DNA of 64,000 bases from assembly GCF_964204645.1 (NCBI RefSeq), contig NC_134036.1:10519859-10583858 (forward strand), read 5' to 3'. A program made the position numbers and the translations under genes. Below, in pieces: positions 27,561 to 61,762 of the stretch (its first letter is position 1; every line of letters starts with the position of its first letter). Source of the DNA: Tubulanus polymorphus (Eukaryota > Animalia > Nemertea). The notes under the pieces are model-generated. The model ran no database searches. It saw nothing but the letters and a program-made list of their open reading frames with translations, and had not been told where the DNA came from.

Positions 27561-27606
27561 TTATTTCTGAAGATGACTATTAGGACATAGACGAAACGTT
27601 GAATAA
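27561..27606 (+). ncRNA. Minimal type I hammerhead-ribozyme-like motif (Penelope-like repeat remnant)
   Basis: TTATTT-CTGAAGA-TG-a-CTAT..ATAG-a-C-GAAA-CGTT-GAATAA: core CUGANGA/GAAA, stems I and II, palindromic ACGT stem III. Confidence 0.55.
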
Positions 27607-27609
27607 ACT

Positions 27610-28188
27610 AGTAATAGGGGTTTAGTTGTTTCAGATCAAAGGTCGAACGGTCGAGCTCATTAAAAAACAAAATATTAAAAGTAATTAAAAAACTATAATA
27701 TATTTTCATAACCGCGTTCATTTTATATCAAAACTAAATATTTATTATAAGATATTAATAATATAAAAAGCATATTGTATTAAATCAATTGGTCGCTCCG
27801 CTTCGCTATCGCTCCGCTCCACGACCAATTGATTTAATTACAATACACAAATTTAAATAATCAAATATATTCAAATGATAATAATTATTCTATTATTCAA
27901 CCGAAATACACGCGGTTATGAAAATATATTATAGTTTTTTAATTACTTTTAATATTTTGTTTTTTAATGAGCTCGATCATTAAACCTTTAACCCGAAACA
28001 ACTAAACCCCTATTACTCTTAAAATATTCACATATATATGAATAACATTTAAATCATTGAACTTCTAAAATCAATTTTAATAAAAAATATAGTATTAAAA
28101 TGGAAGCAAATAAATACTACTGCCCAACATGTAATATCGATATAGACAAGTCTCAAAAAGCAAGACACAATAAAACTATAACACATTT
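27610..28188 (+). repeat. Left TIR of the Polinton (579 bp), includes the first ~29 codons of polB
   Basis: Reverse complement of 47037-47615; only two mismatches noticed by eye, both in the central GC-rich loop. Confidence 0.95.
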
Positions 28189-31100
28189 AGAGAATAAATT
28201 GAAACTAGAGTATAAGGATGATATATTAGAAACTAAATTAGAAGAATTAAAGAATGAAAAAGAAACATACAAATGTGTTACATGTAATCAATCATTCAGT
28301 GATAAAAGATATTATAAAGAACATTTAAAATCTATAAGTCATATTAGAAATAAGAATAATGATATTTTAGGTGAAGATTATTTTGATAATGATAACGATA
28401 AGAAACAGAAGACAATTAAAAGAATAAAAAATAAATTAAACAATAAAAGACCATACATGGAAGATGTAAGAAATTATATTAATTCATTAGATAATAAAAA
28501 AGATATAGAGATAACCGAAGCATTTAAAAGTGATATTGGTCCAGCAGCTATCGAGTTTAAATTTCATAAAGGTAAAACATTAGAAGAAAATAAAAAACAT
28601 TTAGAAAATATGAAAGAAATAATAAAAATAATTACAGATGTTGAATATCCTAAAATAAGTATATCAGTTAAAGTTAAATTCATAAAATCTGAAGATAAAC
28701 CAATATATAATATAAATTCTCATTCACAACATATTATATCTAAACAACATATAGATGATAAATTAAATAAATGTTATAATGAAATAAAAACTAAAATAGA
28801 AGAGAAATATTTTGAAGGATCTGGTTTAATATTTGATGAAATAATATTTATGACTTTACATGTTTATAACACAAAATATAATAAGTTAACTAAATCAAAA
28901 CCAATTGATGAAAATAACTTATCATATAATAAAGAACCAGATATTGATGCATCAAGTTATATTAAACTACCATTTAAAACTAATGCTGTAATAAATATAC
29001 AAAATGAAGATGATAAATGTTTTCTATGGGCTATAATAAGTTGTTTACATCCTGCAACTTATAATATTTGTAGATTAACTCATTATAAACCATTTGAAAA
29101 TAATTATAAGATAGATAAGTATCCTGTTAGAATTAAAAATATTCCAAAAATAGAAAGAGATAATAATATAAAGATAAATGTATTTGATTTAATTAAATTA
29201 CCAAATACAAAAGGAAATAATATTAAACATTATACATTAGAACCTTTATACCTATCAAAAGATTATGATTCAAATGATGTTATAGATATACTATATTATG
29301 AGAATCATTATATGTGGATTAAAAGAATTGATTTATTTTTCAAATCAGAAAATGATTTTGATAATAAAATATATCTATGTAGAAAATGTTTACATAAATT
29401 CAGAACTGAAGGTGCATTATTAAATCATAAACAATTATGTGATAATCATGATTATTGTAAATTAGTTTTACCAAATGAAAAAGATAAAATATTAGAATTC
29501 AAAAAATATGATTACAAAAATAAAGTACCATTTGTAATATATGGAGATTTTGAATCATTAAATAAAGAATTAACAGATAAAGATAGAAAAGATATATATT
29601 ATAAAAGAAAGAAATTAAATTCTAATGAAAGTGATTATTCAGAAGAACCACCAATAACAAATACTATTAAAAAGATTCATCAATCAGCTGCTGCTTTCGG
29701 GTTATATATAAAATCTGATTATCCAGAACTAATTGAAAGTGAATATTATCATTATAGAAATGAAAATGTTATCAATCATTTTTGTGACTTATTAATTGAA
29801 TATGAAATAAGATTTAGTAAATTATTGAATACAAATAAAGAAATAATTATGACAGAAGAAGATAAAGAAGTATTTGAGTTTACAGATAAATGTTATTATT
29901 GTGAAAAGATATTTAATTATAAAGATAAAAAAGTAAGAGACCATGATCATTTGAATGGAAAGTTTAGAGGCGCTGCACATGAGAATTGTAACTTACAAGC
30001 TAAGAAAATTAACTTTGTACCAGTTATATTTCATAACCTATCAGGATATGATGCACATTTATTTATCAAACAGCTATGCCATAAAATAGAAGAAATCAAT
30101 AATGAAATAGAAATATTAAATTCAAATAGATCAAAAGATAAAATACCAACTTATAAATTTAGAATGTTAGCTAAAACATCTGAGAATTATATATCATTCC
30201 AATTTGGTTGTTTAAGATTTATAGATTCATATAGATTTTTAAATAGTTCATTAGATAACTTATCAAAATCATTAGTTGATGATGAATTAAAGATATTAAA
30301 AGAATATTACCCAAATTATGATGATTTTAAATTAATGAGATATAAAGGAGCGATTCCATATTCTTTCTATAAAAATCATAATGATTTTAAAATAACTGAA
30401 TTATTGAAAGAACAATTCTATGATGAATTAAAAAATGAATATGTTAAAGATGAAGTTTATAATAGAACATTGAATATTTGGAATCATTTTGAAATTAAAA
30501 ATCATGGACAATTAGTAGATTTATATTTAAAATCAGATGTATTATTATTAACCGATATATTCGAAAGGTTTAGAGATGTAAACCTAAAATATTTTAACAT
30601 TGATCCATGTCATTGTTATTCATCACCAGGATTAACATGGGATTGTGGATTAAAATTTACAGATATAAAAATGGATTTGTTAACAAATATAGATCAATTA
30701 CTATTATTTGAAAAATCTATAAGAGGAGGTGTTTCAGGTGTATTGGGTGATAGATATTTCAATGTAAATGATAATCCTGGATATAAATTATTATACATAG
30801 ATGCAAATAATCTTTATGGTTGGGCAATGATGGAACCACAACCTTATGGGATGTTTGAAATAACTGAAGTTTTACAAATTGATAAATTTGATTGGAAGAA
30901 AAGAATCCTAGATATTGCAGATGATTCAGATATTGGTTACTTCTTTGTTGTAGATTTAGAATACCCCGAAAATATTAAATTCAAATCTAGAAATCTAGCA
31001 TATTGTCCCGAACATAAAATTGTTAAACATGAAGAATTATCAAATTATCAAAAAAGAATTAAACCCGATAACCATATTCATACAGAAAAGTTAATGGTAA

Positions 31101-32125
31101 CTCAAGAAGATAAATATAATTATGTTGTGCATTATAGAATGTTAAAATTCTATTTGAATCAAGGAATGATATTTAAAAAAGTACATAGATATATTTCATT
31201 TAATCAATCTAAGTGGTTAGAAAAATATATAGATTTTAATACTACACAGAGAACTAAATCTAAAACTGATTTTGAAAAAGATTATTTTAAACTAATGAAC
31301 AATGCGTTCTATGGTAAGACTTGTGAAAACATAAGAAATAGAAGTGATATTGAGTTAGTTAGTAATTGTAAAAGAATTAGACATTTACAATCGTATCCGA
31401 AATTCATAGGTAACAGAATATTTGATGAAAATTTAGCAGCAGTTAAAATGAGAAGAACAAGTATGAAATTTAATAAACCAATTTATGTTGGTGCATCGGT
31501 TTTAGAGTTATCAAAGCTATTGATGTATAAATTTTATTATAACATATTACAACCCCATTTTGGAGAAAAAAATATAGAAATATTATATCTAGATACTGAC
31601 AGTTATATATTAAAGATAAAAAGTGATAATATAAATGATGATTTAAAAATATTAAAATACCATTTTGATTTTAGTAACTATCCAAAAAATCATGAATTGT
31701 TTAGCAATGATAATAAAAAAGTTCCAGGGAAGTTTAAAGATGAATTAGGTGGTGAAGAAATGATAGAGTTCATTGGTATTAGATCTAAAATGTATAGTTA
31801 TAAAACTAAAGAACATGAAGCTAAAAAGTTAAAAGGAATAACTAAAAGTGTAGTAGAAAAGAATATTCATTTCAAAGATTACATCAATTGAATATTTAAT
31901 GAAGAAGTTAGAAAGCATAAAATGAAATGTTTAAGATCTGAAGATCATGAAATGTATATTGAAGAGATAGAGAAGATAAGTCTAAACCCATTTGATGATA
32001 AAAGATATATTTTAGATGATGGAATCCACACAGTCGCCTATGGTTGCAATTTAGATGAATATATAAAATTCAAAAGAGAAGAAACAAAAGAAAATGAAAT
32101 TATGAAAAGGATTCTAACGTGTTAA
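28100..32125 (+). CDS. polB: Protein-primed family B DNA polymerase with N-terminal C2H2 fingers and an endonuclease-VII-like insertion; premature TGA at 31889-31891
   Basis: Exo motifs YGDFES, FHNLSGYD, YLKSDV; polymerase motifs YIDANNLYG, KLMNNAFYGK, YLDTDS; CYYC..RDHDH..GKFRGAAH..CN; ORF 31922-32125 continues in the same frame after a single stop. Confidence 0.95.
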
Positions 32126-32153
32126 TCAATTTCAATAAAAATTTGTATAATAA

Positions 32154-32495
32154 ATGGAGAGTAAACAAGTACACAATGAATTCTTAGATAGAATTAAAGA
32201 TACCACAAATGTAAAATCTGTAGATTATAAATTCAAAAAGTTAACAGAATTAACAATTCACAAGAAATATTTAATTACAAATATTGTTACAGTTACTAAC
32301 AAATATGGAGATAAATTAGTTATACACTTAGAATATGAAGGATTAAAAGGAAATAAATATAAATTCAGAACTTATTTACCAGATAGATTTCATAGATTAT
32401 CAAGTGAAGATCTAGAAGAATTATGTTCTGGAGATTTCTATTTCGTATACAAAGGTAAGAATGAAAAAGGACACCATGAAATAGATTACGAATAA
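32154..32495 (+). CDS. Polinton small protein (113 aa), possibly OB-fold/ssDNA-binding
   Basis: Intact ORF directly after polB, TAAATG start, beta-strand-like pattern (TNKYGDKLVIHL..YLPDRF); function is a guess. Confidence 0.6.
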   Translation: MESKQVHNEFLDRIKDTTNVKSVDYKFKKLTELTIHKKYLITNIVTVTNKYGDKLVIHLEYEGLKGNKYKFRTYLPDRFHRLSSEDLEELCSGDFYFVYKGKNEKGHHEIDYE

Positions 32496-32512
32496 GAAAA
32501 TATGTAAAATAA

Positions 32513-33271
32513 ATGGCGGAATTAAAAGAATACAGAATATTTGTTGATTCTAGAAGGCTTACAAATTATAAATCACATAATTTACTAGTACAATTAGACA
32601 GAGAATTTAAGAATTGTGTAGATTTAAAATTAGTAAATATAAGTTTATGTAATTCTTTTTACAATGTATCGGATAAGTCTATTGAACATAGAGTCTTTTT
32701 AATTTATGATAGAAATAAAAGTAAATGGTTTCATCTTTATCTTAAACCAGGATTATATAATTTAGAAACATTAGCTCAAGAAATTAATAGAAGAGCTCGG
32801 TTGAAAATGGGTCCATCTGCTGGATTTGGATTAAGACTGATTAAAAGTGATAGTTCTGATAAAATAAGAATAAAATTAGGTAATGAAGATCAACATCAAT
32901 TTCTAGTTAAAAAACCCTTAGCTAAAATTTTAGGAATAACCCCAGATGTAAGGATACGCAATGCTGATGCTACACCAAATATAATGCCTTTTACACATTT
33001 TTATATTTATTGCAATTTAATCGATCCTACAAAAACATTTGAAGCAACTAAAGATATAACTTGTAATTCTGGTTTACTAAACATTTTACCATTGAAGAAT
33101 GTTAAAGAATTTGGAACGCAAATAAATTATAATTTAACAGAATGTGATTTCAAACCATGCATTCCTCGTTTTAATAATTTTAGATTAGAAATTAGAAATC
33201 ATAATGGATACTTAATTGATTTAAATAACTTTCCTGTAATTTATGAATTAGTTATAAGATGTAAAGAGTAA
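32513..33271 (+). CDS. Minor capsid protein (penton, single jelly-roll)
   Basis: 252 aa; N-terminal IFVDSR and C-terminal FRLEIRNHNGYLIDLNNFPVIYELVI strands typical of polinton/virophage pentons; FYIYCNLI motif. Confidence 0.8.
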   Translation: MAELKEYRIFVDSRRLTNYKSHNLLVQLDREFKNCVDLKLVNISLCNSFYNVSDKSIEHRVFLIYDRNKSKWFHLYLKPGLYNLETLAQEINRRARLKMGPSAGFGLRLIKSDSSDKIRIKLGNEDQHQFLVKKPLAKILGITPDVRIRNADATPNIMPFTHFYIYCNLIDPTKTFEATKDITCNSGLLNILPLKNVKEFGTQINYNLTECDFKPCIPRFNNFRLEIRNHNGYLIDLNNFPVIYELVIRCKE

Positions 33272-33287
33272 TTTTTCACCTATATAA

Positions 33288-33629
33288 ATGAATATAACTG
33301 TTGGACCGAGTATATGTTTTGGGTTTGATTTTAAACATGGTAAAGAAATGAGAATTAAACTAAATGATGTAATTACTGATATAAAAAGTAAATCATTTAA
33401 CAATGTGTCAATGATTGATAAAGAAAATTATAATATAGAAAAAGTCATTGATTTAATTAAATCACCTTTAGAATATTATGAATTAAATGAAGATGGAATT
33501 ATTGATGATATTAAAAACATATTATCCAAAATATATGATAATCATAAAAGTAGTAATGAAATAAATGTTGAATTAATCATAAATAAGTTAACTAAATATT
33601 TTGATGATAGTAATTTTTTTGATAAATAA
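33288..33629 (+). CDS. Polinton hypothetical protein (113 aa)
   Basis: Intact ORF in the tightly packed gene run, TAAATG start. Confidence 0.7.
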   Translation: MNITVGPSICFGFDFKHGKEMRIKLNDVITDIKSKSFNNVSMIDKENYNIEKVIDLIKSPLEYYELNEDGIIDDIKNILSKIYDNHKSSNEINVELIINKLTKYFDDSNFFDK

Positions 33630-33851
33630 ATGAGTGATAATAAGTGGATAATAACTGGATTATATAATGGCGCATTACTATCAGTTGGAACTGTTGGTTA
33701 TTCAATGGTATTAAAAAAAGTATTCAAAATGGGAAGTGTTAATGTTGATAGATTTGATATAAATGATATTTTAAAGTTAACATTAGCAGTTACTTTATCT
33801 AATTTAACTATTGATTATTTGGAAAAACAAAAATATATTCCTCCCATATAA
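33630..33851 (+). CDS. Small hydrophobic/membrane protein (73 aa)
   Basis: Two hydrophobic segments; start abuts the previous stop (TAAATG). Confidence 0.7.
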   Translation: MSDNKWIITGLYNGALLSVGTVGYSMVLKKVFKMGSVNVDRFDINDILKLTLAVTLSNLTIDYLEKQKYIPPI

Positions 33852-33875
33852 ATGCATAATTTTTTTGCTAAATAA

Positions 33876-34298
33876 ATGGCTTCTGCAATTATAACTATTA
33901 TAGGATCGGCAATTGTTAACGCTTTAGCATTTACTGGTGGTGGTTATTTATTTAAACATATTGATAAAAATAGTTCATTAGGAGAACAAAGAAGACATAA
34001 CTTAGCGTTAGAGAAATACAATAAAGCTGCAGAAGAATATAGAGAAAAGAGACAAAACTATATGGATTACATCAATAAAGAATTATATGATCAGAAGATT
34101 TCACACAGAGATTTTCAATCAGTTGATGATGCAATGAGTTTATATAACGCAGTAACAAATAAAGAAAAATTACATCTATACAAACCTAAATTATCAGATT
34201 ATTATACCCCAAGTAAAGAACAACAGAAATATGAAATAATATGGATTTTAGGTGGAACTGTTATTGTTATATTTGTAGCTTATAAGTTTACTAATTAG
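33876..34298 (+). CDS. Membrane protein (140 aa) with hydrophobic ends and a central coiled coil
   Basis: MASAIITIIGSAIVNALAFTGGGYLF... IIWILGGTVIVIFVAY. Confidence 0.75.
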   Translation: MASAIITIIGSAIVNALAFTGGGYLFKHIDKNSSLGEQRRHNLALEKYNKAAEEYREKRQNYMDYINKELYDQKISHRDFQSVDDAMSLYNAVTNKEKLHLYKPKLSDYYTPSKEQQKYEIIWILGGTVIVIFVAYKFTN

Positions 34299-34317
34299 TA
34301 ATTTTTATTCTAAATAA

Positions 34318-34752
34318 ATGGAAGATAAAGTTGATAGTATTGATATTATTCCTCATGATATAAATAAAACTAAATTAAAAATATATTTAGAAAAACAAAT
34401 ATTAGAATTTGAAAGTGACTTAAAGATAAAATAGAAAAAATATTTAAAAAGTAAAATTATATATTATTTGATTATAAGTGGTTCGGTTACAATTAGTTCT
34501 GTAATAACATTTCTAGCAATATTCAGTCCATTAACACCTTTAGCTATATCAATTGGTGTATTAGGATTAAGTTCAAGTGTTTTAACTGGTATAAGTTCAA
34601 AATTAAATATAAAAAGTAATAAAGAAAAAATCAAAACTAATATAAAAGAAATTAATAAATTAAAGAACACACTAGATTATATAATAAGTTTAAATGGTCA
34701 TATAACAGTTGAAGAACAAGATAAATTATTAAAAGAATTAATAAACTATTAA
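34318..34752 (+). pseudogene. Two-TM membrane protein interrupted by an in-frame TAG (34432-34434)
   Basis: TAAATG start at 34318 is in frame with the ORF 34468-34752; hydrophobic hairpin followed by a coiled coil. Confidence 0.75.
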
Positions 34753-34768
34753 TTTTTTAATTATATAA

Positions 34769-36157
34769 ATGGTAGATAGTTTTCCAAAAGCTTTCCGATA
34801 TAATAAATCAATTAAATATAATATTCCAGCAATAGATTTTAATAATGATATTACATATAGAAATGAAGTTTTAGATTCATTAACTAATTTAGAAATTTAT
34901 GTTACTGAAACTAATAATTTTAATGCAAAGATGGAAAATATATTTCATGTATATTTAATTTATTTTAAAAAATTAAAAGATGAAAAACAATGGTTATTAA
35001 AATCTAATATGAAGTATTGGCAGAATCAATTAAATTTTGCTGTTTATTGTGCAACAACAGGTTGTGGAATTAGTTGGAATGATCATTTGAATAATTCTAA
35101 ATATAAATTAATTCAAAGTTTATTTAGATTTCATACATACTTTCAAACCAGAATAATATTAAATGAATTAGAGTGCGCTTTACCAGGATCTAGGTATTTC
35201 AAAGAATTAGATAATAATATTAATTTATCTAAGTTTCATAAAATTTGCAATGAATTTAATATAGATATAAATAATTCTGATTTTAGAATAAAAATTGGAA
35301 CAATAAGATCACTTCCTTGCCCTAAAAAGATTGCAGAATATTGTGCACTTCCCATACCATCGAATAGTTTTTATAATATCTATAATAAAAAATTAGGTTA
35401 TGGTAAAATAGAAACAAAGGATTTAGAAACATTAAATTTCAATAAATTACCGAAATTTTATGATAATTTAAAACAAGAAAACAATAATGGTTGGGTTTAT
35501 TTTCTTTTAGAAAATAGTGAAGGTTTTACAAAATCAGGTATACAAAGAATAAATCAATCTATTAGAACTTATTTGATTTGTATTCTAGGTGCGCAAGTTG
35601 AAACAAGATCACCGATAATTGGAAATTTGAATACATCATTCGATACACAAAAACAGTTTAAAGTTTTATTTGAAGATTCAATTCATAATGATAAAAATAG
35701 ATCGATTCCAGAAAACATTATAAGATATCAAAATTATTTAGATAAATCTCATGTAAGACTAAATTATTGTATAGGCCCTAATCTATTAATTATTTCTAAT
35801 GATTTAGTATTAAAGATGGGAAATATAATTGGTTATAATAATCTAATTAAAACTGCAACAATAAATAATTCATTTGGATTGAATGATATAAATAAAAAGA
35901 TTATTACTGCTCCAAAATTAATGGAAGGTGAAAAAAATAAAAAACACATTCAATCAACAGAAACTAAAACTAAGAATATTAAATTAAATAATGATTCTAA
36001 AATAAAAGATTACAATACATCAGAAAATAATAGAACTGATATAATTCAACATGATATAATTAAAACTGATAATGATAATAAATCACATGAAAATACTAAA
36101 TTAGCTATAACTTGTATAGGAATTGTAATCGGAGGAATATTATATTTTAAATTTTAA
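34769..36157 (+). CDS. Polinton protein of unknown function (462 aa) with C-terminal TM anchor
   Basis: Intact ORF; WQNQLNFAVYCATTGCGIS block; C-terminal LAITCIGIVIGGILYF. Confidence 0.8.
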   Translation: MVDSFPKAFRYNKSIKYNIPAIDFNNDITYRNEVLDSLTNLEIYVTETNNFNAKMENIFHVYLIYFKKLKDEKQWLLKSNMKYWQNQLNFAVYCATTGCGISWNDHLNNSKYKLIQSLFRFHTYFQTRIILNELECALPGSRYFKELDNNINLSKFHKICNEFNIDINNSDFRIKIGTIRSLPCPKKIAEYCALPIPSNSFYNIYNKKLGYGKIETKDLETLNFNKLPKFYDNLKQENNNGWVYFLLENSEGFTKSGIQRINQSIRTYLICILGAQVETRSPIIGNLNTSFDTQKQFKVLFEDSIHNDKNRSIPENIIRYQNYLDKSHVRLNYCIGPNLLIISNDLVLKMGNIIGYNNLIKTATINNSFGLNDINKKIITAPKLMEGEKNKKHIQSTETKTKNIKLNNDSKIKDYNTSENNRTDIIQHDIIKTDNDNKSHENTKLAITCIGIVIGGILYFKF

Positions 36158-36173
36158 TTTTTTTATTATGTAA

Positions 36174-37643
36174 ATGGATGTAGAAGGTGGAGAAGATTAT
36201 GAAATGGGAGAAATGGGAAATGATAATGAAGGATATATTGATGATGATTATAATGATGCAGAAACTAATATTGATAATGATGATGAATCAGCATATAATT
36301 CTAATTTAGCAGATAGTGGTTCTAAAGGTCAATCAACAGATGAATTTGATAGAAGAACTAGATCGAGAATAAATCCTGAAAATGAAAATCCAGATTTAGT
36401 AAAACAAAATTTAGAATATAATGAATTTATGTATGATTTTCAACATGTATTTAAAGATTCTGGATATAATATAAATACCAGAGGCGCTAGACTTTTAGTA
36501 CAAGAATTAAAGTTTTTAGATGGTGAATATTATTATCGTTTGAAAGATGATTACTATATTGATATCTCTTATAAAAAACAAAACAAAATATTAGCAGAAT
36601 CAACTTTGCTTAAGTTTGACTCATTACTATCTAGAATTAAAAGAATAAGAAATAGTAATGAAATAGAAGATGTAACACAAGAAGAAATTATTAAAAATGA
36701 AAGAGTATTTAAACAAAGAATTAATGAATTATTTGAAACAATCGATAATAATTTAGAACCAGAAACAAGTTCTGAACAGAATATAACTTCCAAAACTAGT
36801 AAACTTAAATCAAACACTGAAGTTCAAACTGAAAAACTTTTACCGAATGGATTACTTGATGCAACAGATCAAGAAATAGAAGCTTTAAGTATGTTTTCTA
36901 AAAAAACAATTAGAGAAATAATAAGTATACGAGATGAAGCTGATAAAATTGCTCGCGAAAAACATATTAGATATAATAAAATTAAACCTTTAGAAAATAA
37001 ATTATTTGACACCAGAAAAGAATTAGAACAATTAAAATTAGATAGAGAATTTAAAGTTATTGAAGAAATTGATTTTAAAAAAAGAAATGCATATTTAGAA
37101 AAAGAAATTGATGATTTAGAATATAACATAGAATTTCAGAAAGAAAAAATGAAATTATTATTAAAATCATACGATTATTGTATCAATAGATTAAAAGTTG
37201 TTGTTAAAGAGTTAATACTAAAACCAAATTCTGACATATCACTAAAAGACAGAATAAAATTATTATTTAAGTTTGAAGGAATAACAATTCTTTCAATTCT
37301 AACAGCTGTAACTATGTTATTTACAACAATTGGTTTAGCTATATCAAATGCTTTAAAATCTACTCCTACTCCCAATAAACCAGATAAACCTCCAGGTAAT
37401 AATTCTATACAAGATAAAGTTAAAGATGGTTTAAAGAAATTAGCAAAATATTTATGGGAACTATCAAAGAAATCTGCTGCAGCATTACCAGGAGTTATTG
37501 CATCAATTGTTGGTTTTATATTGAAATCTGCAGGAAACATTATTAACTTTGCTGCTGAACATATTATTTTATTTTTAATTACAGTTGTAAGTGCTATTAT
37601 TTTTGGTTTAGTAAATATGATATCAAAAAATATCAAAAAATAA
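36174..37643 (+). CDS. Acidic/coiled-coil protein (489 aa) with C-terminal TM helices
   Basis: Acidic N-terminus, heptad-rich middle, 2-3 hydrophobic helices at the C-terminus. Confidence 0.8.
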   Translation: MDVEGGEDYEMGEMGNDNEGYIDDDYNDAETNIDNDDESAYNSNLADSGSKGQSTDEFDRRTRSRINPENENPDLVKQNLEYNEFMYDFQHVFKDSGYNINTRGARLLVQELKFLDGEYYYRLKDDYYIDISYKKQNKILAESTLLKFDSLLSRIKRIRNSNEIEDVTQEEIIKNERVFKQRINELFETIDNNLEPETSSEQNITSKTSKLKSNTEVQTEKLLPNGLLDATDQEIEALSMFSKKTIREIISIRDEADKIAREKHIRYNKIKPLENKLFDTRKELEQLKLDREFKVIEEIDFKKRNAYLEKEIDDLEYNIEFQKEKMKLLLKSYDYCINRLKVVVKELILKPNSDISLKDRIKLLFKFEGITILSILTAVTMLFTTIGLAISNALKSTPTPNKPDKPPGNNSIQDKVKDGLKKLAKYLWELSKKSAAALPGVIASIVGFILKSAGNIINFAAEHIILFLITVVSAIIFGLVNMISKNIKK

Positions 37644-37667
37644 ATAATTAATTTTTTTGTTAAATAA

Positions 37668-38916
37668 ATGAGTGGGAGTTATATAAGTCCTTCTAAGATT
37701 TCTAGAATATCTAATGCTATTAAAGCAGAAAGATCACATCATATAATTACTCATAACCCTTCAAATATTAATCCCGATGAAACTTTATACGTTAGAATCC
37801 CTCGATTAACACAAAATACTTTTTACGTTCCAAACAGTATTTATTTATCAGCTGATATAAAAGTAATCGGTAATAATAATAATTATGTCGTTGATAATGT
37901 TGGAAGATATTTGATTAAAAAGTTAACAATAAAGATTGGTCCAGAAACAGTTTTCTCATTAGATGATTATAATTTATTTATGCATTATAAAGATTTATGA
38001 TTAACAAAAGAAAATAGAAATAATATGATATTTCAGGGTATTCAATCAGAAAACCAAAATAAATTAAGATCAGAAGCTAATAGCGCAATATTAACTAATG
38101 ATGTAGATAAATTGATAAAAAGTATATATGGAAGCAAATATAAAATTCCATTAGACTTTGAATTGATAAATAATAATGCACCTTTATATAAATACGCAAT
38201 TCAAGAAGATATTATATTTGAGATAACATTTGCTCCTGTAAATGAAATTGTATTATCTAGCGTTAATAAAGATATGAGTTATAAATTATCGAATATATGT
38301 TTAGAATATGATACAGTAACTGATGAAAATATTGCTAGAACAATTCAAACTCAATACAATCAAGGGTTTTCATTATTATATGATTATATTGATAAATTTA
38401 AAACTGTAACTATTAATGCAAATGATGAAATAATTAATGAGAATATTAACTTTCCTAGAAGATCTATTAAAGGTATATTAATATTTTTTACTATTGGAAC
38501 GTATACTAATGGCGCAATAAATGTTGACAATTATTATAATCCTGAAATAACAAAAGTAGAAATAACTATCGAAGGAATAGCAAATAAAATATTTTGTCAA
38601 GGAATGAGAATGATAGATCAATGGGTAGAAATTAAAAAACATTTTATGAATGAAAAAGTAAAATCATTTGAAAATTGTAACATTAATCAAATTGACTATT
38701 ATACCGGTAATAAATTTGCATTATGGTTAGATTTTAGAACAACAGAAGATAATTCATTACATGGTTCTGGAAAAAAAACTACAGAACACTAAAGATGGAA
38801 TACAATTATTCATGAAAAAGAATAAGGGAATCAAAAATTTTAAAATGCACATTTATATTATATCTGACGCGCAATTATATATTGTAAATTCACAATTAGA
38901 TAGTGTTATGTATTAA
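37668..38916 (+). pseudogene. Major capsid protein (double jelly-roll), disrupted by TGA at 37998-38000 and a +1 frameshift in an A-run near 38775
   Basis: Size (~415 codons), beta-rich sequence and Polinton context; the paralog at 60630-61729 has TGG and an open frame at these positions. Confidence 0.8.
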
Positions 38917-40760
38917 AATTTTAACTTTAATAAAAATATATATAATAAATGGAAGGTAAAGTATATGAAAGAATCAAAGCTGATAAAGAAATAAATGATG
39001 ATTTGTATTATGTAATACCTTATAAAAGAATAAATGAATATATTGGAACATTTTTATTAAATGAATTAAATCAATACAAAGAATATTTAATTGAACGTAA
39101 TAATAATATTGAAACAAAAATAGAAGATAATATTGAAACAAAAATAGATAATAATATTGAAACAAAAATAGAAGATAATATTGAAACAAAAATAGAAGAT
39201 AATGTTATACCTTCTACATCGAATGATGATAAGATTGAAACAAAAATAGAACATAATATTGAACCTAAAATAGAAAAATCAAATGTTCAACCAAAAGATA
39301 ACATTAGATGTATGTATTGTGAAGAAGATTTTGATAATTATAATGATTATTTATTACACATCAAAAAAGATGAACATATTTTACAATTAGTAAAAACATA
39401 TGCCAATATATATAAAGATAAATGTAAAGAGGATCAGAATTATTGTGCTTTCTGTAATGAATGTATAACAAAGGCTAATTGGGAAGATATTATATTTGAG
39501 ATAACATTTGCTCCTGTAAATGAAATTGTATTATCTAGCGTTAATAAAGATATGAGTTATAAATTATCGAATATATGTTTAGAATATGATACAGTAACTG
39601 ATGAAAATATTGCTAGAACAATTCAAACTCAATACAATCAAGGGTTTTCATTATTATATGATTATATTGATAAATTTAAAACTGTAACTATTAATGCAAA
39701 TGATGAAATAATTAATGAGAATATTAACTTTCCTAGAAGATCTATTAAAGGTATATTAATATTTTTTACTATTGGAACGTATACTAATGGCGCAATAAAT
39801 GTTGACAATTATTATAATCCTGAAATAACAAAAGTAGAAATAACTATCGAAGGAATAGCAAATAAAATATTTTGTCAAGGAATGAGAATGATAGATCAAT
39901 GGGTAGAAATTAAAAAACATTTTATGAATGAAAAAGTAAAATCATTTGAAAATTGTAACATTAATCAAATTGACTATTATACCGGTAATAAATTTGCATT
40001 ATGGTTAGATTTTAGAACAACAGAAGATAATTCATTACATGGTTCTGGAAAAAAAACTACAGAACACTAAAGATGGAATACAATTATTCATGAAAAAGAA
40101 TAAGGGAATCAAAAATTTTAAAATGCACATTTATATTATATCTGACGCGCAATTAAATATTGTAAATTCACAATTAGATAGTGTTATGTATTAAAATTTT
40201 AACTTTAATAAAAATATATATAATAAATGGAAGGTAAAGTATATGAAAGAATCAAAGCTGATAAAGAAATAAATGATGATTTGTATTATGTAATACCTTA
40301 TAAAAGAATAAATGAATATATTGGAACATTTTTATTAAATGAATTAAATCAATACAAAGAATATTTAATTGAACGTAATAATAATATTGAAACAAAAATA
40401 GAAGATAATATTGAAACAAAAATAGATAATAATATTGAAACAAAAATAGAAGATAATATTGAAACAAAAATAGAAGATAATGTTATACCTTCTACATCGA
40501 ATGATGATAAGATTGAAACAAAAATAGAACATAATATTGAACCTAAAATAGAAAAATCAAATGTTCAACCAAAAGATAACATTAGATGTATGTATTGTGA
40601 AGAAGATTTTGATAATTATAATGATTATTTATTACACATCAAAAAAGATGAACATATTTTACAATTAGTAAAAACATATGCCAATATATATAAAGATAAA
40701 TGTAAAGAGGATCAGAATTATTGTGCTTTCTGTAATGAATGTATAACAAAGGCTAATTGG
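38205..40760 (+). repeat. 1278-bp direct tandem duplication (38205-39482 / 39483-40760)
   Basis: Copies essentially identical (one substitution seen near 38878/40156); junction GGCTAATTGG|GAAGATATT. Confidence 0.95.
38949..40070 (+). CDS. Chimeric ORF made by the duplication: zinc-finger protein N-terminus fused in frame to the MCP C-terminal half
   Basis: Translation switches from ...CITKANW to EDIIFEITFAP... at the junction. Confidence 0.85.
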   Translation: MEGKVYERIKADKEINDDLYYVIPYKRINEYIGTFLLNELNQYKEYLIERNNNIETKIEDNIETKIDNNIETKIEDNIETKIEDNVIPSTSNDDKIETKIEHNIEPKIEKSNVQPKDNIRCMYCEEDFDNYNDYLLHIKKDEHILQLVKTYANIYKDKCKEDQNYCAFCNECITKANWEDIIFEITFAPVNEIVLSSVNKDMSYKLSNICLEYDTVTDENIARTIQTQYNQGFSLLYDYIDKFKTVTINANDEIINENINFPRRSIKGILIFFTIGTYTNGAINVDNYYNPEITKVEITIEGIANKIFCQGMRMIDQWVEIKKHFMNEKVKSFENCNINQIDYYTGNKFALWLDFRTTEDNSLHGSGKKTTEH

Positions 40761-41285
40761 GCAAAACATTATAAATTAAAAACAAAAGGTGGAAATGATT
40801 CAGCCCATGCAATACAAGTATTTAAATCTTGGTGTGAAAAATGTAAAGAATATGTAATATATGATAAACAATTGAATCATAAATACTCAATTAAACATAT
40901 TGGTACAGATAATGTAATAGAAGATCCAACAGTTATAAATCCAAAATTTAATGATAATAATATATTAGATTATCGGTGGTATAGAAAAACATTTATAGAT
41001 TATTTCTCGAGTGATGATATAGTTACCATATTGAAAAAGTTAGATAACTTTAAACCAAATGTAAGTTATGCAATGAACTTATTTGAACTTAAATATGATG
41101 ATTTTAGAGAATTTTTAAATAAACATCCATCTAAAACTGAAATCGAAAATTATATTCCAAAAATATTTTCAAGAAAAACATTCAATAAATATAAATTTAG
41201 AAATCATTCAGGAATTATAACAATGAAAATGAAAAGGGATATATATTTAGAATACAATAAGCTTAAAGAAAAATATGAAAATTAA
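40227..41285 (+). CDS. Zinc-finger protein (352 aa) with IETKIEDN repeats
   Basis: CxxC...H..H motifs (CMYC, CAFC, CEKC); 24-bp tandem repeats. Confidence 0.8.
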   Translation: MEGKVYERIKADKEINDDLYYVIPYKRINEYIGTFLLNELNQYKEYLIERNNNIETKIEDNIETKIDNNIETKIEDNIETKIEDNVIPSTSNDDKIETKIEHNIEPKIEKSNVQPKDNIRCMYCEEDFDNYNDYLLHIKKDEHILQLVKTYANIYKDKCKEDQNYCAFCNECITKANWAKHYKLKTKGGNDSAHAIQVFKSWCEKCKEYVIYDKQLNHKYSIKHIGTDNVIEDPTVINPKFNDNNILDYRWYRKTFIDYFSSDDIVTILKKLDNFKPNVSYAMNLFELKYDDFREFLNKHPSKTEIENYIPKIFSRKTFNKYKFRNHSGIITMKMKRDIYLEYNKLKEKYEN

Positions 41286-41297
41286 AATTAAAAAGAT

Positions 41298-41793
41298 TAT
41301 ATAATTGACTGTATATTGATGGATGAATGGATGAGTTGGAAGAGTTGGATGAATTGGATGAGTGGAAGAGTGAATGAGTATAATAATATATATATTTTAC
41401 TTTTTAACACATAAATTGGAAGAATAGTATGAGTATAAATATAATATTTTTATTCTTTATTAAATTTAACACAATATATATTTATTATTATATGACATTT
41501 ATTATCTGTCATTTTATTATTTTATAAAAATATATTTATTATTTATCATTTTATTATTTATTATTTTATGAAAATATATTTATTATTATATGACATTTAT
41601 TATCTGTCATTTTATTATTTTATAAAAATATATTTATTATTATATGACATCTTCAAATCAAACTCTTACTGTTTTAAAAATTAAAAACATATGTAAATTA
41701 TATATTATTACACTCTTCCATTCATCCACTCTTCCAATTCATCCAATTCATCCAATTCATCCATTCATCCATCAATATACAGTCAATTATATA
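41298..41793. repeat. Inverted repeat with GGATGA/TCATCC sub-repeats between the convergent gene blocks
   Basis: TATATAATTGACTGTATATTGATGGATGAATGGATGA at 41298 and its reverse complement ending at 41793; AT-rich direct repeats in between. Confidence 0.85.
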
Positions 41794-41806
41794 GGTATAC
41801 AAATAG

Positions 41807-42418
41807 TTATTTTATGAATTTATATTCATATGGAAATTGTAATCTCATTAATAATTTTGAACCTTTATTATTTTTTAATTTATTCATATATTCATCATGT
41901 AATTCAGTAGGTATAATTTGATTTTCTTCTAATGATTGTTGCATAGATTTTCTATCTTTGTTGTAGAATAAAACTAGAAATCTTATATTCTCCCTAAAGT
42001 CTTTAACAATTGAATTATATTTCTGATTTAAAACCCATGTTGTTATCCCAAAATGTCTTCCAGAGAAAGCTAAATAACATAACTCACTTTCTCTAATTTT
42101 AGAATCATGTAAATTTGCGCAATCATCAATAATAAATAATGTATTTGATCCTTTATAAATATCTAATACAATTTTTATACAATTATCTAAATTTTCTTTT
42201 ACTGTTTTAGGGTCTAATATAATAAACATTTTTATTTTAACTATATCTCTAATATATGTTTTATTCATTTCATATGTAGGACAGAATAATATTATATTAT
42301 CAAAATGATTTTTATAAATAGTTTCTAACAAATCTAATATGAAATGTGTTTTACCACAATTTGTAACTCCAGTAACTAACATATTATGTGGTTCAAATAT
42401 AAATAAATCTTTATTCAT
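41807..42418 (-). CDS. A32/FtsK-like genome packaging ATPase
   Basis: Walker A GVTNCGKT, Walker B FIIDD, GRHFGIT..LNQ motif. Confidence 0.92.
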   Translation of the reverse strand: MNKDLFIFEPHNMLVTGVTNCGKTHFILDLLETIYKNHFDNIILFCPTYEMNKTYIRDIVKIKMFIILDPKTVKENLDNCIKIVLDIYKGSNTLFIIDDCANLHDSKIRESELCYLAFSGRHFGITTWVLNQKYNSIVKDFRENIRFLVLFYNKDRKSMQQSLEENQIIPTELHDEYMNKLKNNKGSKLLMRLQFPYEYKFIK

Positions 42419-43498
42419 TTATTCTTTTAATTTTACTAGATAAAATCCATTCATTAAATTTATCATCATATCCTTTATATTTCACCAAAGAATACTTTTT
42501 TCCTTTAAGAGTTTTTGTTTTCAATACTTTTTCTATTTTGTATTCTATTTCATCTGGATTTGGTACTAATGATAATTCTTGTTCATAAAAATAACCTAAT
42601 ATTTCTTCATCTTTTAAATCAAACAATTTATAAACAAATGGTTTAGTTAATATTATCTTTTTAATTTTAAATATTTCTTCTGTAAAATTAGGGGTATAAC
42701 CTTTATAAAATGTTTTTCGATATTTAGAAATTCTAACGTGTTGTCCTATTTTAAATTTAGGTTCTCCAAAATCATGTGTAACAAATGCTCCATATAAATT
42801 ATTCCAAACTATTTCTGAATTTTCTTCTTTTCTAGCTTCTATAGGTTTCATATTTATAGAACTATGTTTAGAATTATTATAACCTTTAACTAAATCATCT
42901 AATACATTGATATATTTATATGTTTCATTAGCGGTGAAATATTTCCACATTCTAGTTTTCAATGTTTTATTAAATCTTTCTATAACAGATGCTTTTTATC
43001 TGAATGTGTTGAAAAATATTCTACTTCGTTATCAGATAATAGTTTTTTAAAATGTTTGTTATAAAATTCTTTACCTTCATCAAATTGTATCTTATCTGGA
43101 ATAGCTTCTTTAAATATAGATTTAAAAGCATTTGTTACTTCTATTCCAGTTTTATTTTTAATCGGGATACTCCATGCGTATCGACTGAATATATCTATAA
43201 CATTCAGTATCCAGAAATATCCTTTGTTGTATTCTTCTAAGTTTTTCATATCAATTAAATCAGCTTGCCATTGTTGGTCAATATATGAAACCATTACTTT
43301 TCTTGTTAAATATTTTTTATCCATCTTTTTATGAATTTGATATGTGGGTTGATTTTGTAACCATGATTTTAATTCACTATATTTTATATTGCTATTATCG
43401 GATTTAATTTTATTCCATAATTCTGAAACGTTAGAATATGAAACTTCACTTTCTGGGTTGTAATATAACTCTCTTAAATATTGTTCTTTTTTCATCAT
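42411..43498 (-). pseudogene. int: Retroviral-type (rve) integrase with C-terminal chromodomain; 1-bp deletion near 42993
   Basis: WQADLID, VIDIFSRYAW, QFDEGKEF; restoring one A gives KKASVIERFNKTLK; chromodomain YKIEKVL...LVKYKGY..KFNEW. Confidence 0.93.
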
Positions 43499-43501
43499 AT
43501 T

Positions 43502-43879
43502 TTAATCCATTAATAATATTTTAGATTTATTTTCATTTGATTTATTTTCTGTTATAATAGGTTTACTGTCTGTACACGGATAACTAAGTTTCCGATCATC
43601 ATTGGAATCATCTTTATCGTCAGATTTGAATTTTGATTTATATATTACACCAGATAATATAATAATTGTGATTAACCCAATTGTAATATATAAGTAATTA
43701 TTTCTTCCACTATTAGAAGAATTAGATGGATTATTATTTGAATCAATACCATCAGATTCATTTATATCAGATAATTTCTTTTTCTTAGCTTTTTTTAATT
43801 CTGATGATCTTTTACCTAATTCTCTTGCCCATTTAATTTGTTTCTCGGATCTAGGCTTTTTCTTAACTCCATCACTCAT
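43502..43879 (-). CDS. Basic protein with one TM helix (125 aa)
   Basis: KKKPRSEKQ basic N-terminus; YITIGLITIIILSGVIY. Confidence 0.7.
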   Translation of the reverse strand: MSDGVKKKPRSEKQIKWARELGKRSSELKKAKKKKLSDINESDGIDSNNNPSNSSNSGRNNYLYITIGLITIIILSGVIYKSKFKSDDKDDSNDDRKLSYPCTDSKPIITENKSNENKSKILLMD

Positions 43880-44477
43880 TTATTTTAGTTAATTTTTGTT
43901 CTGATTCATCTTCTGTTTCGACGTTTGGTTGTAGTACATCTGTTTCGTTCTTACCTGATTTATATTCCATAGGTTTGATGTTCGAAAATGTTATGACACC
44001 AGTAGAAATCAATGTCATAACCGATCCTAATTGGAATGAAGCATAACCGACCCATTTTTGTAATTCAGTCATAACTAAATAGTCATTTTTCAAATCATTA
44101 TATAATTTATTTTCATCATCAATTGGTATTAGCCGGTTACATAATTTTGAATAACATTTGATAATACCATCACTTATAGAGTCGTTTATTCTAGCTAATC
44201 TTGACTCTTCATAAATCTTAAAATATTTGATTACTTTTTCTTTGTTCATATTATCTAATTCTTGAAAAGTTATTGTTTTACCAATAAACTCTTTAGTTTT
44301 TCCACTCGCAATCAATAGTTCTAGATGATGCTTACAATATAAATAGTATTCATAATCAATATTACTATCAATTTTATTATCACATTTAGTTGCCACATTA
44401 TCATTATCATCTGTTAGACCTAAATCTTCCAAAGTTTTTTCAACTTTAATATTATTCTTATTCGATTTCTTAGACAT
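43872..44477 (-). CDS. Polinton hypothetical protein (201 aa)
   Basis: Intact ORF, TAAATG start, weakly hydrophobic C-terminal segment. Confidence 0.7.
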   Translation of the reverse strand: MSKKSNKNNIKVEKTLEDLGLTDDNDNVATKCDNKIDSNIDYEYYLYCKHHLELLIASGKTKEFIGKTITFQELDNMNKEKVIKYFKIYEESRLARINDSISDGIIKCYSKLCNRLIPIDDENKLYNDLKNDYLVMTELQKWVGYASFQLGSVMTLISTGVITFSNIKPMEYKSGKNETDVLQPNVETEDESEQKLTKINE

Positions 44478-44725
44478 TTATATTAGAGAAATTTAATAAG
44501 AATAGTATTATAAGTATTCTTCAAATAATACCAGTATCTCTTTAGATTAATACTAGCTAGTTAAAGTTAAAGAATTCTAGTATTAGTTATTGTTTTTTTT
44601 AGTATTTTTTATTTGTGATATAAAGTATTCTCTTTTGAAAAGAAAATATTAAAAATTAAAATAGAAATAATAGATAGTTGAAGGTATGTAATTTTTATTA
44701 TATTTTATTTGAGATATATTATTCT

Positions 44726-45403
44726 TTAACCACTCATTAAAGACTCAACGTATTGTTCATTATGTGTTGAGTTCCATAATTCAATAAATTTCTTTGCTTT
44801 TGTTAACTGTTCCAAATATAACTGTAAATCTAGTTTATTAGATTTGATTTGATTTTCTTTCTTTTCTAAAGGCCTTAGATTCTTCCAATTCCAAATAAGT
44901 TTTTTATTGTATTCATCATTCATGTTAAATTTAGATATTGGTAACACGTGATCAATGTGGTAATAATCCCCATAATTATCTATATTCATTTTATCATCGA
45001 ATTGATATATTATCCATGATTTAAAAAATTCATCTGAACAACCCAATATATTAGACAATGTAACTGAATGTGTTTCATTACTAAATAATTGTGATAATCT
45101 AGTATTTAAACATTGTTTCATTTTAAAATTAAAATCTGTTTGATACCTTTTCTTTCGATAATTATTTTGATACTCATTATAATATTCACGATGATCTTCT
45201 CGATAATCTGGATTATTTTCTTGCCATTGTTTGGTGTATAGTTTAGTACAAGTTTTACAACAATATTGAAAACCATCTTTGCTAATCTTACGCTTACTAA
45301 ATTCTGTTAATGATTTATCTAATTCACATTTAGAACATGTCTTCTGATATATATTTATTACAACATTATTGTTTATATTTATAGCTTGTGATTGTTCCTC
45401 CAT
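44726..45403 (-). CDS. HNH-family endonuclease with N-terminal C4 zinc ribbon
   Basis: KTCSKC...CKTC; YHIDHVLP...NWKNLRPL...NQIKSNK. Confidence 0.8.
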   Translation of the reverse strand: MEEQSQAININNNVVINIYQKTCSKCELDKSLTEFSKRKISKDGFQYCCKTCTKLYTKQWQENNPDYREDHREYYNEYQNNYRKKRYQTDFNFKMKQCLNTRLSQLFSNETHSVTLSNILGCSDEFFKSWIIYQFDDKMNIDNYGDYYHIDHVLPISKFNMNDEYNKKLIWNWKNLRPLEKKENQIKSNKLDLQLYLEQLTKAKKFIELWNSTHNEQYVESLMSG

Positions 45404-45539
45404 TTATAATATATATTTTTATTAAAATTGGTTAATATTTTAGAATCCTCTTCCATTTCTTCGATCAACGTCATCCTTTTTCATTCCTCGCTGCTTTTGA
45501 TAAGTTGTTTCGATTCCTTGATATCTAAATAATACCACT

Positions 45540-46015
45540 GGGCAAAACCGCGCATTCGTGCGCGCTTTTGCTTAATGCGCATGCGTTAATCATAATTATA
45601 TATTCATTCTGTAAATTCTGTAAAATAGAAACGACCGAACACAGAAAATATCAAAACGTGTTCACATTAGGTAAAACCGCGCATTCGTGCGCGCTTTTGA
45701 TCAATGCGCATGCGCTAATCATAATTATATATTCATTCTGTGAAATAGAAACAACTGAACATAGAAAATTCAAACACATATGCACTAGGCAAAACCGCTC
45801 TTATAGGAGCGCTTTTGCTTAATGCGCATGCGCTAATTATAATTATATTTACATAATGAATATATAATTATGTAAATAGAAACGACCGACATAAAATATC
45901 AAAACGTGTTCGCATTAGGCAAAACCGCTCTTATAGGAGCGCTTTTGCTTAATGCGCATGCGCTAATTATTATTATATATTCATTCTAGAAATAGAAACG
46001 ACCGAACATAAAAAT
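45540..46015. repeat. Four ~120-130-bp tandem repeats with GC-rich hairpins
   Basis: GG(C/T)AAAACCGC...GCGCTTTTG.TTAATGCGCATGCG units near 45541, 45670, 45788 and 45918. Confidence 0.9.
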
Positions 46016-46951: not shown

Positions 46952-47125
46952 TTATAACGATTCAACATATTTTTCACCATGTGTTGAGTTCCTTAATTCG
47001 ATAAATGTCTTTGCTTTAACCAACTGGACTAAAAACAAATGTGTTATAGTTTTATTGTGTCTTGCTTTTTGAGACTTGTCTATATCGATATTACATGTTG
47101 GGCAGTAGTATTTATTTGCTTCCAT
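46952..47125 (-). CDS. 57-aa chimeric mini-ORF: PolB N-terminal finger plus an HNH-protein-like C-terminal tail
   Basis: Own translation MEANKYYCPTCNIDIDKSQKARHNKTITHLFLVQLVKAKTFIELRNSTHGEKYVESL*; tail resembles LYLEQLTKAKKFIELWNSTHNEQYVESL of ORF 44726-45403. Confidence 0.6.
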   Translation of the reverse strand: MEANKYYCPTCNIDIDKSQKARHNKTITHLFLVQLVKAKTFIELRNSTHGEKYVESL

Positions 47126-47615
47126 TTTAATACTATATTTTTTATTAAAATTGATTTTAGAAGTTCAATGATTTAAATGTTATTCATATATATGTGAATA
47201 TTTTAAGAGTAATAGGGGTTTAGTTGTTTCGGGTTAAAGGTTTAATGATCGAGCTCATTAAAAAACAAAATATTAAAAGTAATTAAAAAACTATAATATA
47301 TTTTCATAACCGCGTGTATTTCGGTTGAATAATAGAATAATTATTATCATTTGAATATATTTGATTATTTAAATTTGTGTATTGTAATTAAATCAATTGG
47401 TCGTGGAGCGGAGCGATAGCGAAGCGAAGCAACCAATTGATTTAATACAATATGCTTTTTATATTATTAATATCTTATAATAAATATTTAGTTTTGATAT
47501 AAAATGAACGCGGTTATGAAAATATATTATAGTTTTTTAATTACTTTTAATATTTTGTTTTTTAATGAGCTCGACCGTTCGACCTTTGATCTGAAACAAC
47601 TAAACCCCTATTACT
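47037..47615 (-). repeat. Right TIR of the Polinton (579 bp)
   Basis: Reverse complement of 27610-28188. Confidence 0.95.
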
Positions 47616-61729: not shown

Positions 61730-61762
61730 AAATTTTAACTTTAATAAATATTTATATAATAA

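Follow-up and report, generated by a model that had tools for sequence, protein, structure and literature searches.

Poxvirus-type promoter sequences at the gene starts of an animal Maverick/Polinton point to a probable virophage-like dependence on a cytoplasmic helper virus

Most genes of a Maverick/Polinton provirus in the nemertean Tubulanus polymorphus begin within sequences that resemble the late and intermediate promoters of poxviruses. The provirus lies in a 64,000-nucleotide stretch of contig NC_134036.1 (assembly GCF_964204645.1, positions 10,519,859 to 10,583,858, forward strand), referred to here as the window, of which it occupies positions 27610-47615. This 20,006 bp element is a Maverick/Polinton, having 579-nt terminal inverted repeats (TIRs; 99.7% identical), the 6-bp target site duplication (TSD) TAAACT on both sides, and a length within the 15-25 kb of such elements. 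Related elements share its start-site sequences, and a Maverick clade with poxvirus-type intermediate-like and late-like promoter sequences is, at the level of sequence, a real and lineage-wide feature. A co-infecting cytoplasmic virus of poxvirus type likely supplies the RNA polymerase that transcribes the element, and the family would then be a virophage-like parasite of this helper. Animal Mavericks encode capsids, yet are treated as autonomous nuclear elements. If the proposed dependence is true, poxvirus-type promoters would explain their possible silence in healthy tissue, the virophage lifestyle would extend to integrating animal elements, and the promoter sequence would predict an unseen helper virus together with its late consensus.

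Sixteen genes were counted in the element, with the duplicated 38949/40227 gene taken once, and 14 of them begin in the hexamer TAAATG; each coordinate listed for this motif in a preliminary description, made from the sequence alone, proved to be the A of an ATG that follows TAA. The exceptions are polB (28100, TAAAATG) and the integrase gene (43498, minus strand, TAAAATATG), and a TAAA lies within 6 nt of the ATG at all 16 starts. TAA precedes 65 of the 815 ATGs in the element, a background in the same DNA of 6.3% without the gene starts, making the binomial probability of 14 in 16 equal to 1.5e-15 (2.6e-7 at an assumed background of 25%). The corresponding figure in the flanks is 53/1565 (3.4%); none of the four transposon-like open reading frames (ORFs) there starts with TAAATG, a sample too small to count. 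The tiny intergenic gaps that had been described measured 0-32 nt in ten plus-strand gene pairs, and the two upstream genes said to end in INE over the next start are those of the 201-aa protein, the end of which spans the TAAATG of the 125-aa gene, and the integrase, each with an overlap of 8 nt.

Upstream of the hexamer, the starts seem to fall into two classes, one late-like with a run of T and one intermediate-like with a run of A. The T-run is more exact than was claimed in the preliminary description: TAATTTTT-N8-TAAATG occurs seven times in the window, at the seven consecutive gene starts from 33288 to 37668, against 0.02 expected from shuffled sequences. One of these seven sites sits within the codons of the preceding gene, the start at 44477 is a looser eighth example, and TTTTT is present between -16 and -5 at 0/50 internal TAAATG sites. 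The A-run class, AA[TC]TT[TC]AATAAAAA-N9-TAAA, is found at a fixed distance before polB, 32154, 38949/40227 and 45403, of which the last two are near-identical upstream over 31 nt, and are not independent cases. All 14 TAAATG starts have T at -9. The claim that polB and the integrase lack TAAATG was correct, but their description as the expected early genes was not borne out: TAAA lies close ahead of the ATG in each, and polB combines TAAAATG with an A-run motif at 28073, making it probable from these motifs that they are not early exceptions. No fixed pattern emerged for the promoter motifs TAAG (baculovirus-type, upstream of 4/16 starts), TCTA (of the Cafeteria roenbergensis virus, CroV, type; 5/16) or the TATA box (1/16).

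This arrangement can be compared with that in vaccinia virus, in which late promoters are described as carrying TAAAT, usually followed by G, over the start codon, with a conserved T 10 nt upstream amid weaker Ts, whereas intermediate promoters carry TAAA, have no such T, and show an A/T-rich stretch 15-19 nt upstream (PMC11980589). That of G8R, an intermediate gene, has TAAAATG at its end (PMC12917281). Across 44 chordopoxvirus loci, 344/783 starts were TAAATG, with the frequency of T peaking at -10 (0.78) and -9 (0.68). In one chordopoxvirus locus (L143), with ORFs assigned to vaccinia genes by their order from G8R, 10/24 ORFs start with TAAATG, all of them late or intermediate, and 0/8 early genes do. 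A log-odds profile of positions -20 to -1 was built from 183 distinct chordopoxvirus TAAATG contexts against 529 internal ones, with the element excluded from the training data. The 14 contexts of the element scored a mean of 3.71 bits on this profile, compared to -0.07 (standard deviation 0.64) for shuffled 20-mers, none of 5000 shuffles reaching the observed value; the seven T-run sites ranged from 3.3 to 6.7 bits, and the median at 42 distinct internal sites was -1.4 (P 9e-7). Displacing the profile by one to five nucleotides gave 1.8, 0.2, 0.8, -0.7 and -1.9, and training on either of the two gene blocks alone gave the same outcome. For unrelated viral contigs, represented by 32 TAAATG starts, the profile gave chance-level scores (-1.36 versus -1.59; 635/2000). 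Hence, as far as sequence can tell, the match to poxvirus post-replicative promoters extends beyond the hexamer, and is in register.

The pattern is not peculiar to this copy. Relatives were collected as 25 loci, comprising 22 metagenome loci found through alignment of the packaging ATPase and three more through the capsid protein, with L005 and L006 being near-duplicates. Neither protein identified relatives in IMG/VR, none were found in a phage collection, and genome contigs yielded none by ATPase and the three by capsid. Starts were counted for ORFs of at least 60 aa that matched a window protein by BLAST and were not open at the 5' end. TAAATG was present at 57/75 of these homologous starts, against 124 of the 3270 other ATGs (3.8%), and at 55/67 after the removal of eight truncated-looking starts. 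As it was also retained at 15/21 starts in loci with a GC content of 37-55%, AT content is not the cause. The pox profile again scored well above shuffled sequence, at 2.95 versus -0.38 for 66 contexts of relatives and 1.68 versus -1.04 for the 33 more distant among them (0/2000 in each case), and 55 of the 66 contexts have T at -9. T at -10 was found at 19/23 orthologues of T-run genes and 12/26 others (P 0.016), and therefore the promoter class tends to follow the gene, although a 113-aa gene changes class in L001. The motif is kept among relatives with ATPase identities down to 44%, which suggests continued selection. Two more distant loci, L023 and L024 (capsids 33-37% identical), have TAAAATG at 3/5 homologous starts, a variant initiator that may mark a different helper.

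The proposed mechanism starts from naked element DNA in a virus factory, where the helper's post-replicative machinery would transcribe it; that of vaccinia virus acts on naked DNA in the factory. The helper's intermediate factors would read the A-run class, comprising polB and the genes for the putative single-stranded DNA-binding protein (SSB), penton, zinc-finger protein and nuclease, and its late factors would read the T-run class of capsid and membrane genes, with the A-run class firing before the T-run class. Initiation in the AAA of TAAAT would produce non-templated 5' poly(A) leaders through slippage, leaving no real 5' untranslated region (UTR), and the integrase would insert copies into host chromosomes, where the family would persist. 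Every gene, polB included, would have to carry a promoter of this kind in a parasite whose particles contain no apparatus for early transcription, and this is the pattern seen. The route by which a cytoplasmic polymerase would reach an integrated nuclear copy is unexplained. Transcription by a pox-like RNA polymerase, or by that of another nucleocytoplasmic large DNA virus (NCLDV), had been raised in the preliminary description, and is favoured by the in-register profile match, by conservation in relatives, and by the lack of any RNA polymerase domain or DxDGD motif among 19 element ORFs (Pfam and motif level); as between these two kinds of virus, a poxvirus is favoured, but the choice is not settled. 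The element therefore probably works like a virophage while standing outside the virophage family (Maveriviricetes/Lavidaviridae), since the mavirus capsid ranks below those of iridovirus and Paramecium bursaria chlorella virus 1 (PBCV-1) as a match to its capsid, at 8-11% identity, and Pfam finds no protease. A bolder version, offered tentatively and with rather less confidence than helper transcription itself, is that the clade consists of endogenous "poxvirophages" that copy the intermediate and late promoters of an undiscovered invertebrate poxvirus, their chromosomal copies forming an inducible antiviral reserve comparable to mavirus in Cafeteria.

Several observations weigh against a poxvirus-type helper. 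Neither a helper virus nor any transcript or mapped transcription start came to light for the element, and Pfam and homologue searches found no gene common to it and poxviruses beyond the A32 family, which is general to Mavericks. The training set for the profile consisted of two orthologous gene blocks from related chordopoxviruses, with starts called mechanically, and contained no identifiable entomopoxvirus. The exact TAATTTTT at -16 occurs in 0/183 poxvirus contexts, so that no sampled chordopoxvirus is a model for the element, and the A-run heptamer occurs in two; the T-run is far more stereotyped in the element (7/14 starts) than in poxvirus contexts (19/183). T at -10 taken alone is not significantly enriched (9/14 starts versus 18/50 internal sites, P 0.07). 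On the profile, polB scores -3.3 and the integrase 0.7, and therefore their intermediate-like reading draws on the shared motif only. Five of the relatives (L016, L017 and L023-L025) have TAAATG at 0/12 starts, three of which are TAAAATG. AATAAA lies over the stop codon, or no more than 40 nt after it, at 9/16 gene ends, as a nuclear poly(A) signal would, although coding strands show no purging of it (69 versus 68.3 expected), in a test that lacked an adequate nuclear-gene control. TAAATG is also found at 4/21 ORF starts in L147 and 3/6 in L061, loci of a giant-virus bin (G001) that is not a poxvirus. TTTTTNT is mildly depleted in the coding strands of both the element (6 versus 12.6) and poxvirus late genes (13 versus 19.9), and is not diagnostic.

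Searches for the helper itself returned few leads. A scan for the 22-nt late pattern identified 112 viral loci, with the match at an ORF start in 10. The only contig with two matches was from an orthopoxvirus, and as both lay in its terminal repeats, representing one site, and not at a gene, it carries little weight as a lead. A relative, L001, encodes a deoxynucleoside kinase (10340-10981, minus strand; PF01712, 1.7e-31), a gene typical of large DNA viruses, under a T-run promoter sequence. It gave four homologues at E<=1e-20 and one viral match of 37%, from a source with TAAATG at 1/16 starts, and this route was uninformative. A scan for the poxvirus RNA polymerase motif returned 36 records, all with isolate-type identifiers and none from a metagenome, and a run thought to be RNA had one record on the stretch, which carries no weight either way.

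It is rather unlikely, if the alternative deserving most attention, that the helper is a non-pox NCLDV with a TAAAT initiator over the start codon, in which case the element would still be a virophage-like parasite. In G001, L147 has TAAAATG at 3/21 starts, with TAAATG at 26/849 ATGs overall, AAAATG starts are also numerous, and one gene start in L061 fits the 22-nt late pattern exactly; about 25 kb of the bin was read, and one of the three TAAATG starts in L061 is the match by which it was selected. This bin encodes a type II topoisomerase, none of its 19 scanned proteins belongs to a pox-specific Pfam family, and its lineage may use a pox-like initiator. TAAAT-like motifs at ranavirus DNA polymerase promoters, in a review of NCLDV promoters (PMC5294985), also favour a helper of this kind. 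However, the pox profile that fits the element strongly fits the G001 contexts weakly, with an ambiguous score (0.89, 138/2000, n=6), and the division into two classes agrees with poxvirus promoters as described in PMC11980589. Transcription by host RNA polymerase II (Pol II) is more improbable: the element would then be a nuclear virus or transposon living autonomously, and TAAATG and the runs would form a compact core promoter specific to it, or else the AATAAA within the A-run class would signal polyadenylation of the gene before. Nuclear integration and spread to many copies are what such an element would show, the AATAAA at gene ends fits it, and adintoviruses are presented as animal viruses in PMC8502044, the main text of which names no promoter or helper. 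Yet the spacing between the A-run motif and TAAA is fixed, and the motif stands before polB and the 45403 gene as well, neither of which has a gene upstream, while the two converging gene ends lack AATAAA altogether. The gaps between genes are too short for ordinary UTRs, T at -3 is a poor context for initiation in animals, and the in-register match to poxviruses would be unexpected under Pol II.

There is only a slight chance that the promoters are the relic of a helper-dependent ancestor, or serve the polymerase of sister elements or of a cytoplasmic linear plasmid, with no free helper today. The precedent would be the yeast pGKL1/2 elements, described as linear, AT-rich and TIR-bounded, with PolB, a pox-related polymerase, and a TAAAN initiator associated with poly(A) leaders (PMC6211774). 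These nevertheless differ from the provirus in encoding their own polymerase, and in having neither capsid nor integrase, and their upstream element, ATNTGA, lies 20-40 nt before 0/16 of its starts, the three matches being at 49-53 nt. Pfam detects no polymerase subunit among 24 ORFs of relatives, as in the element, and the retention of the motif across those relatives speaks against a relic. Least probable, and largely refuted already, is the explanation of TAAATG as a translation signal coupling stop to start on a polycistronic RNA, or as a by-product of 77% AT. In its favour, the TAA at 33627-33632 is the stop codon of the upstream gene, two other starts overlap upstream genes, and the GC content of the core is 22.7%, compared to 38.3% in the flanks. 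But TAA is the upstream stop at 1/14 starts, the first genes of clusters carry TAAATG too, the background in the same DNA is low, and relatives at 37-45% GC keep the motif; nor does stop-start coupling or AT content explain T at -9 and the T-run.

Poxvirus-type promoters in an animal Maverick were not found described in the literature, as judged by titles and the openings of abstracts, with most subscription journals and supplements lying outside this coverage; the word "promoter" is absent from the available text of a 2026 survey (10.64898/2026.10.13.758929). Animal Mavericks/Polintons (Polintoviricetes), including the Beta adintoviruses of Starrett et al. (PMC8502044), are alike in their length of about 20 kb, TIRs, 6-bp TSD, PolB (presumed from its motifs in the element), rve integrase, ATPase and double-jelly-roll capsid. 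The Beta adintovirus type, in which GasderminX is described, fits the element in its PolB without a PF03175 match and its GasderminX-like gene, a resemblance by description and not by a tree. The virion genes of adintoviruses are reported there as restricted to animals, which, with the transposon-rich flanks and the look-alike clusters from arthropods, suggests an animal host. Barth et al. (2024, PMC11296320) described Polinton-like viruses (PLVs) of about 12 kb in entomopoxvirus occlusion bodies, proposing them as hyperparasites of poxviruses and the first of that kind, and AHEV_PLV1/2 and CBEV_PLV1 are likewise of Polinton type, with PolB or a helicase, an A32 ATPase and a capsid. They differ in being co-sequenced with their helper, and in having a cysteine protease and a tyrosine recombinase or no known integrase, whereas the element, an rve-type Maverick, measures 20 kb, is integrated and has no known helper; the main text of that report does not contain "promoter", "TAAAT" or "motif". 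Mavirus, the promoter of which matches the CroV late motif, and endogenous mavirus-like elements are also integrating viruses with PolB and rve integrase, but no RNA polymerase, that use the late promoter of a helper (PMC8547959). Yet mavirus has another capsid lineage, a protist host, TCTA in place of TAAAT, and one promoter class in place of two, and its dependence on a helper is proven, where that of the element is inferred. CroV-like motifs have also been described in protist virophages (10.64898/2026.07.28.741278). The vaccinia promoters share with the element a start codon overlapped by TAAAT(G), T at -9/-10, the contrast of T-rich late with A-rich intermediate sequences, and the TAAAATG variant (PMC11980589, PMC12917281, PMC5294985), but the TAAT prefix of the more stereotyped T-run in the element is absent from the sampled chordopoxviruses.

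The gene complement is listed in Table 1. Family B polymerase motifs in the 1263-aa ORF of polB were recognised by eye; this ORF has no Pfam polymerase or PDB match, with only its embedded endonuclease VII domain matching Pfam. Look-alike clusters of the 32154 protein came mostly from arthropod genomes, and included a Phi29 SSB cluster at 0.85, which is a lead only. The 32513 product is probably the penton, by analogy of size and with the gene content of Mavericks, and the products of the four small genes, the orthologues of which stand in the same order in L001, are probably virion or membrane proteins. The 489-aa protein at 36174 presumably resembles the GasderminX of Beta adintoviruses. The predicted structure of the intact capsid orthologue in L001 (pLDDT 86.7) matches the capsids of iridovirus, PBCV-1 and mavirus, with an E value of 2.5e-16 for the double-jelly-roll family. 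An adenain-type maturation protease, usual but not universal in Mavericks, was not detected by Pfam among the 19 element ORFs.

Table 1. Features of the provirus and its second copy, in window coordinates; T-run and A-run refer to the two start-site classes.
Feature	Position	Strand	Basis or remark
Left TSD, TAAACT, 6 bp	27604..27609	+	copy at 47616-47621
Left TIR, 579 nt; starts AGTAAT; contains polB promoter and first codons	27610..28188	+	99.7% identical to right TIR
Putative family B DNA polymerase; carries zinc fingers and an endonuclease VII domain (PF02945)	28100..32125	+	ORFs 28100-31891 and 31922-32125; break near C-terminus
113-aa protein, possible ssDNA-binding protein (weak lead); TAAATG, A-run	32154..32495	+	look-alike clusters
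252-aa protein; TAAATG, A-rich upstream	32513..33271	+	L001 orthologue has A-run motif
Seven late-type TAATTTTT-N8-TAAATG sites (33269, 33611, 33857, 34299, 34750, 36155, 37649)	33269..37670	+	
Four small genes: 113 aa (33288), 73 aa, hydrophobic (33630), 140 aa, hydrophobic ends (33876), frameshifted gene (34318-~34752)	33288..34752	+	
462-aa conserved Maverick protein, hydrophobic C-terminal tail; T-run	34769..36157	+	
489-aa coiled-coil protein, hydrophobic C-terminal helices; T-run	36174..37643	+	
Double-jelly-roll major capsid protein; T-run	37668..38916	+	pieces 37668-38000, 38025-38792, 38761-38916; weak Capsid_N
Tandem duplication, 1278 bp, 99.7%; creates chimeric ORF 38949-40070; real or assembly artefact	38205..40773	+	
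352-aa zinc-finger accessory protein; TAAATG, A-run	40227..41285	+	
A32-like packaging ATPase; TAAATG within last codons of integrase (INE, stop)	41807..42418	-	PF04665, 5.5e-11
rve integrase with chromodomain; start TAAAATATG	42411..43498	-	pieces 42980-43498, 42411-42950; PF00665 6.4e-10, PF00385
Conserved 125-aa (43879) and 201-aa (44477) genes; 44477 T-run-like	43502..44477	-	predicted model of the 201-aa protein all-helical
225-aa zinc-ribbon/HNH (endonuclease VII-like) nuclease; TAAATG, A-run	44726..45403	-	phrog_1035, 6.9e-19
Right TIR	47037..47615	-	
Second, partial copy: capsid-gene fragment and different zinc-finger gene with TAAATG start at 61763	60630..62641	+	60630-61848 93% identical

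The copy in the window has broken polB, capsid and integrase genes and a broken gene at 34318, and by itself is probably inert. The start at 61763 listed in the preliminary description does read TAAATG, but belongs to the second, partial copy, and not to the main element. Raw reads from a run bearing the same species label (X6, about 12% of the run) were placed on 26600-41290, where depth was at least 250 in 21 of 22 bins across 28070-38849, against 23 in the single flank bin that provides the baseline. Most of the reads on the element were 90-99% alike, which together with their depth indicates a diverse multi-copy family; the 40227-gene variant was at low depth, unlike the core genes. Many reads depart from the window sequence at the TIR edge, suggesting several insertion or empty sites, and perhaps a target preference. 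The left flank at 27090-27610 is itself a high-copy repeat, at about 800x in this run.

Both TIRs have a 408-nt imperfect hairpin at their outer end (27610-28017 and 47208-47615; -118 kcal/mol, z -22), reminiscent of the hairpin ends of poxviruses or parvoviruses, and odd for a supposedly protein-primed element. A resolution-type sequence, taken here to be T6-N7-9-YAAAW, was not found in the TIR. Palindromes in TIRs have been described for protist elements (10.64898/2026.07.28.741278). Non-coding DNA internal to the right TIR contains, at 45512-45997, a repeat of about 109 nt that is richer in GC and present four times. Where the two gene blocks converge, the same 95-nt sequence stands inverted, 13 nt past the stop codon of each block (41298-41392 and 41699-41793), and three relatives (L002, L005 and L006) have inverted repeats of 39-51 nt, of other sequence, at the same junction; these repeats are possibly a shared 3'-end signal. 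No Rfam family was matched in the window. The flanks consist of transposon debris, including the decayed remains of two DUF1280 transposon-like elements, the terminal repeats of which are related (14273-16303, minus strand; 54127-56799, plus strand), and a Harbinger-type DDE transposase at 21942-22553.

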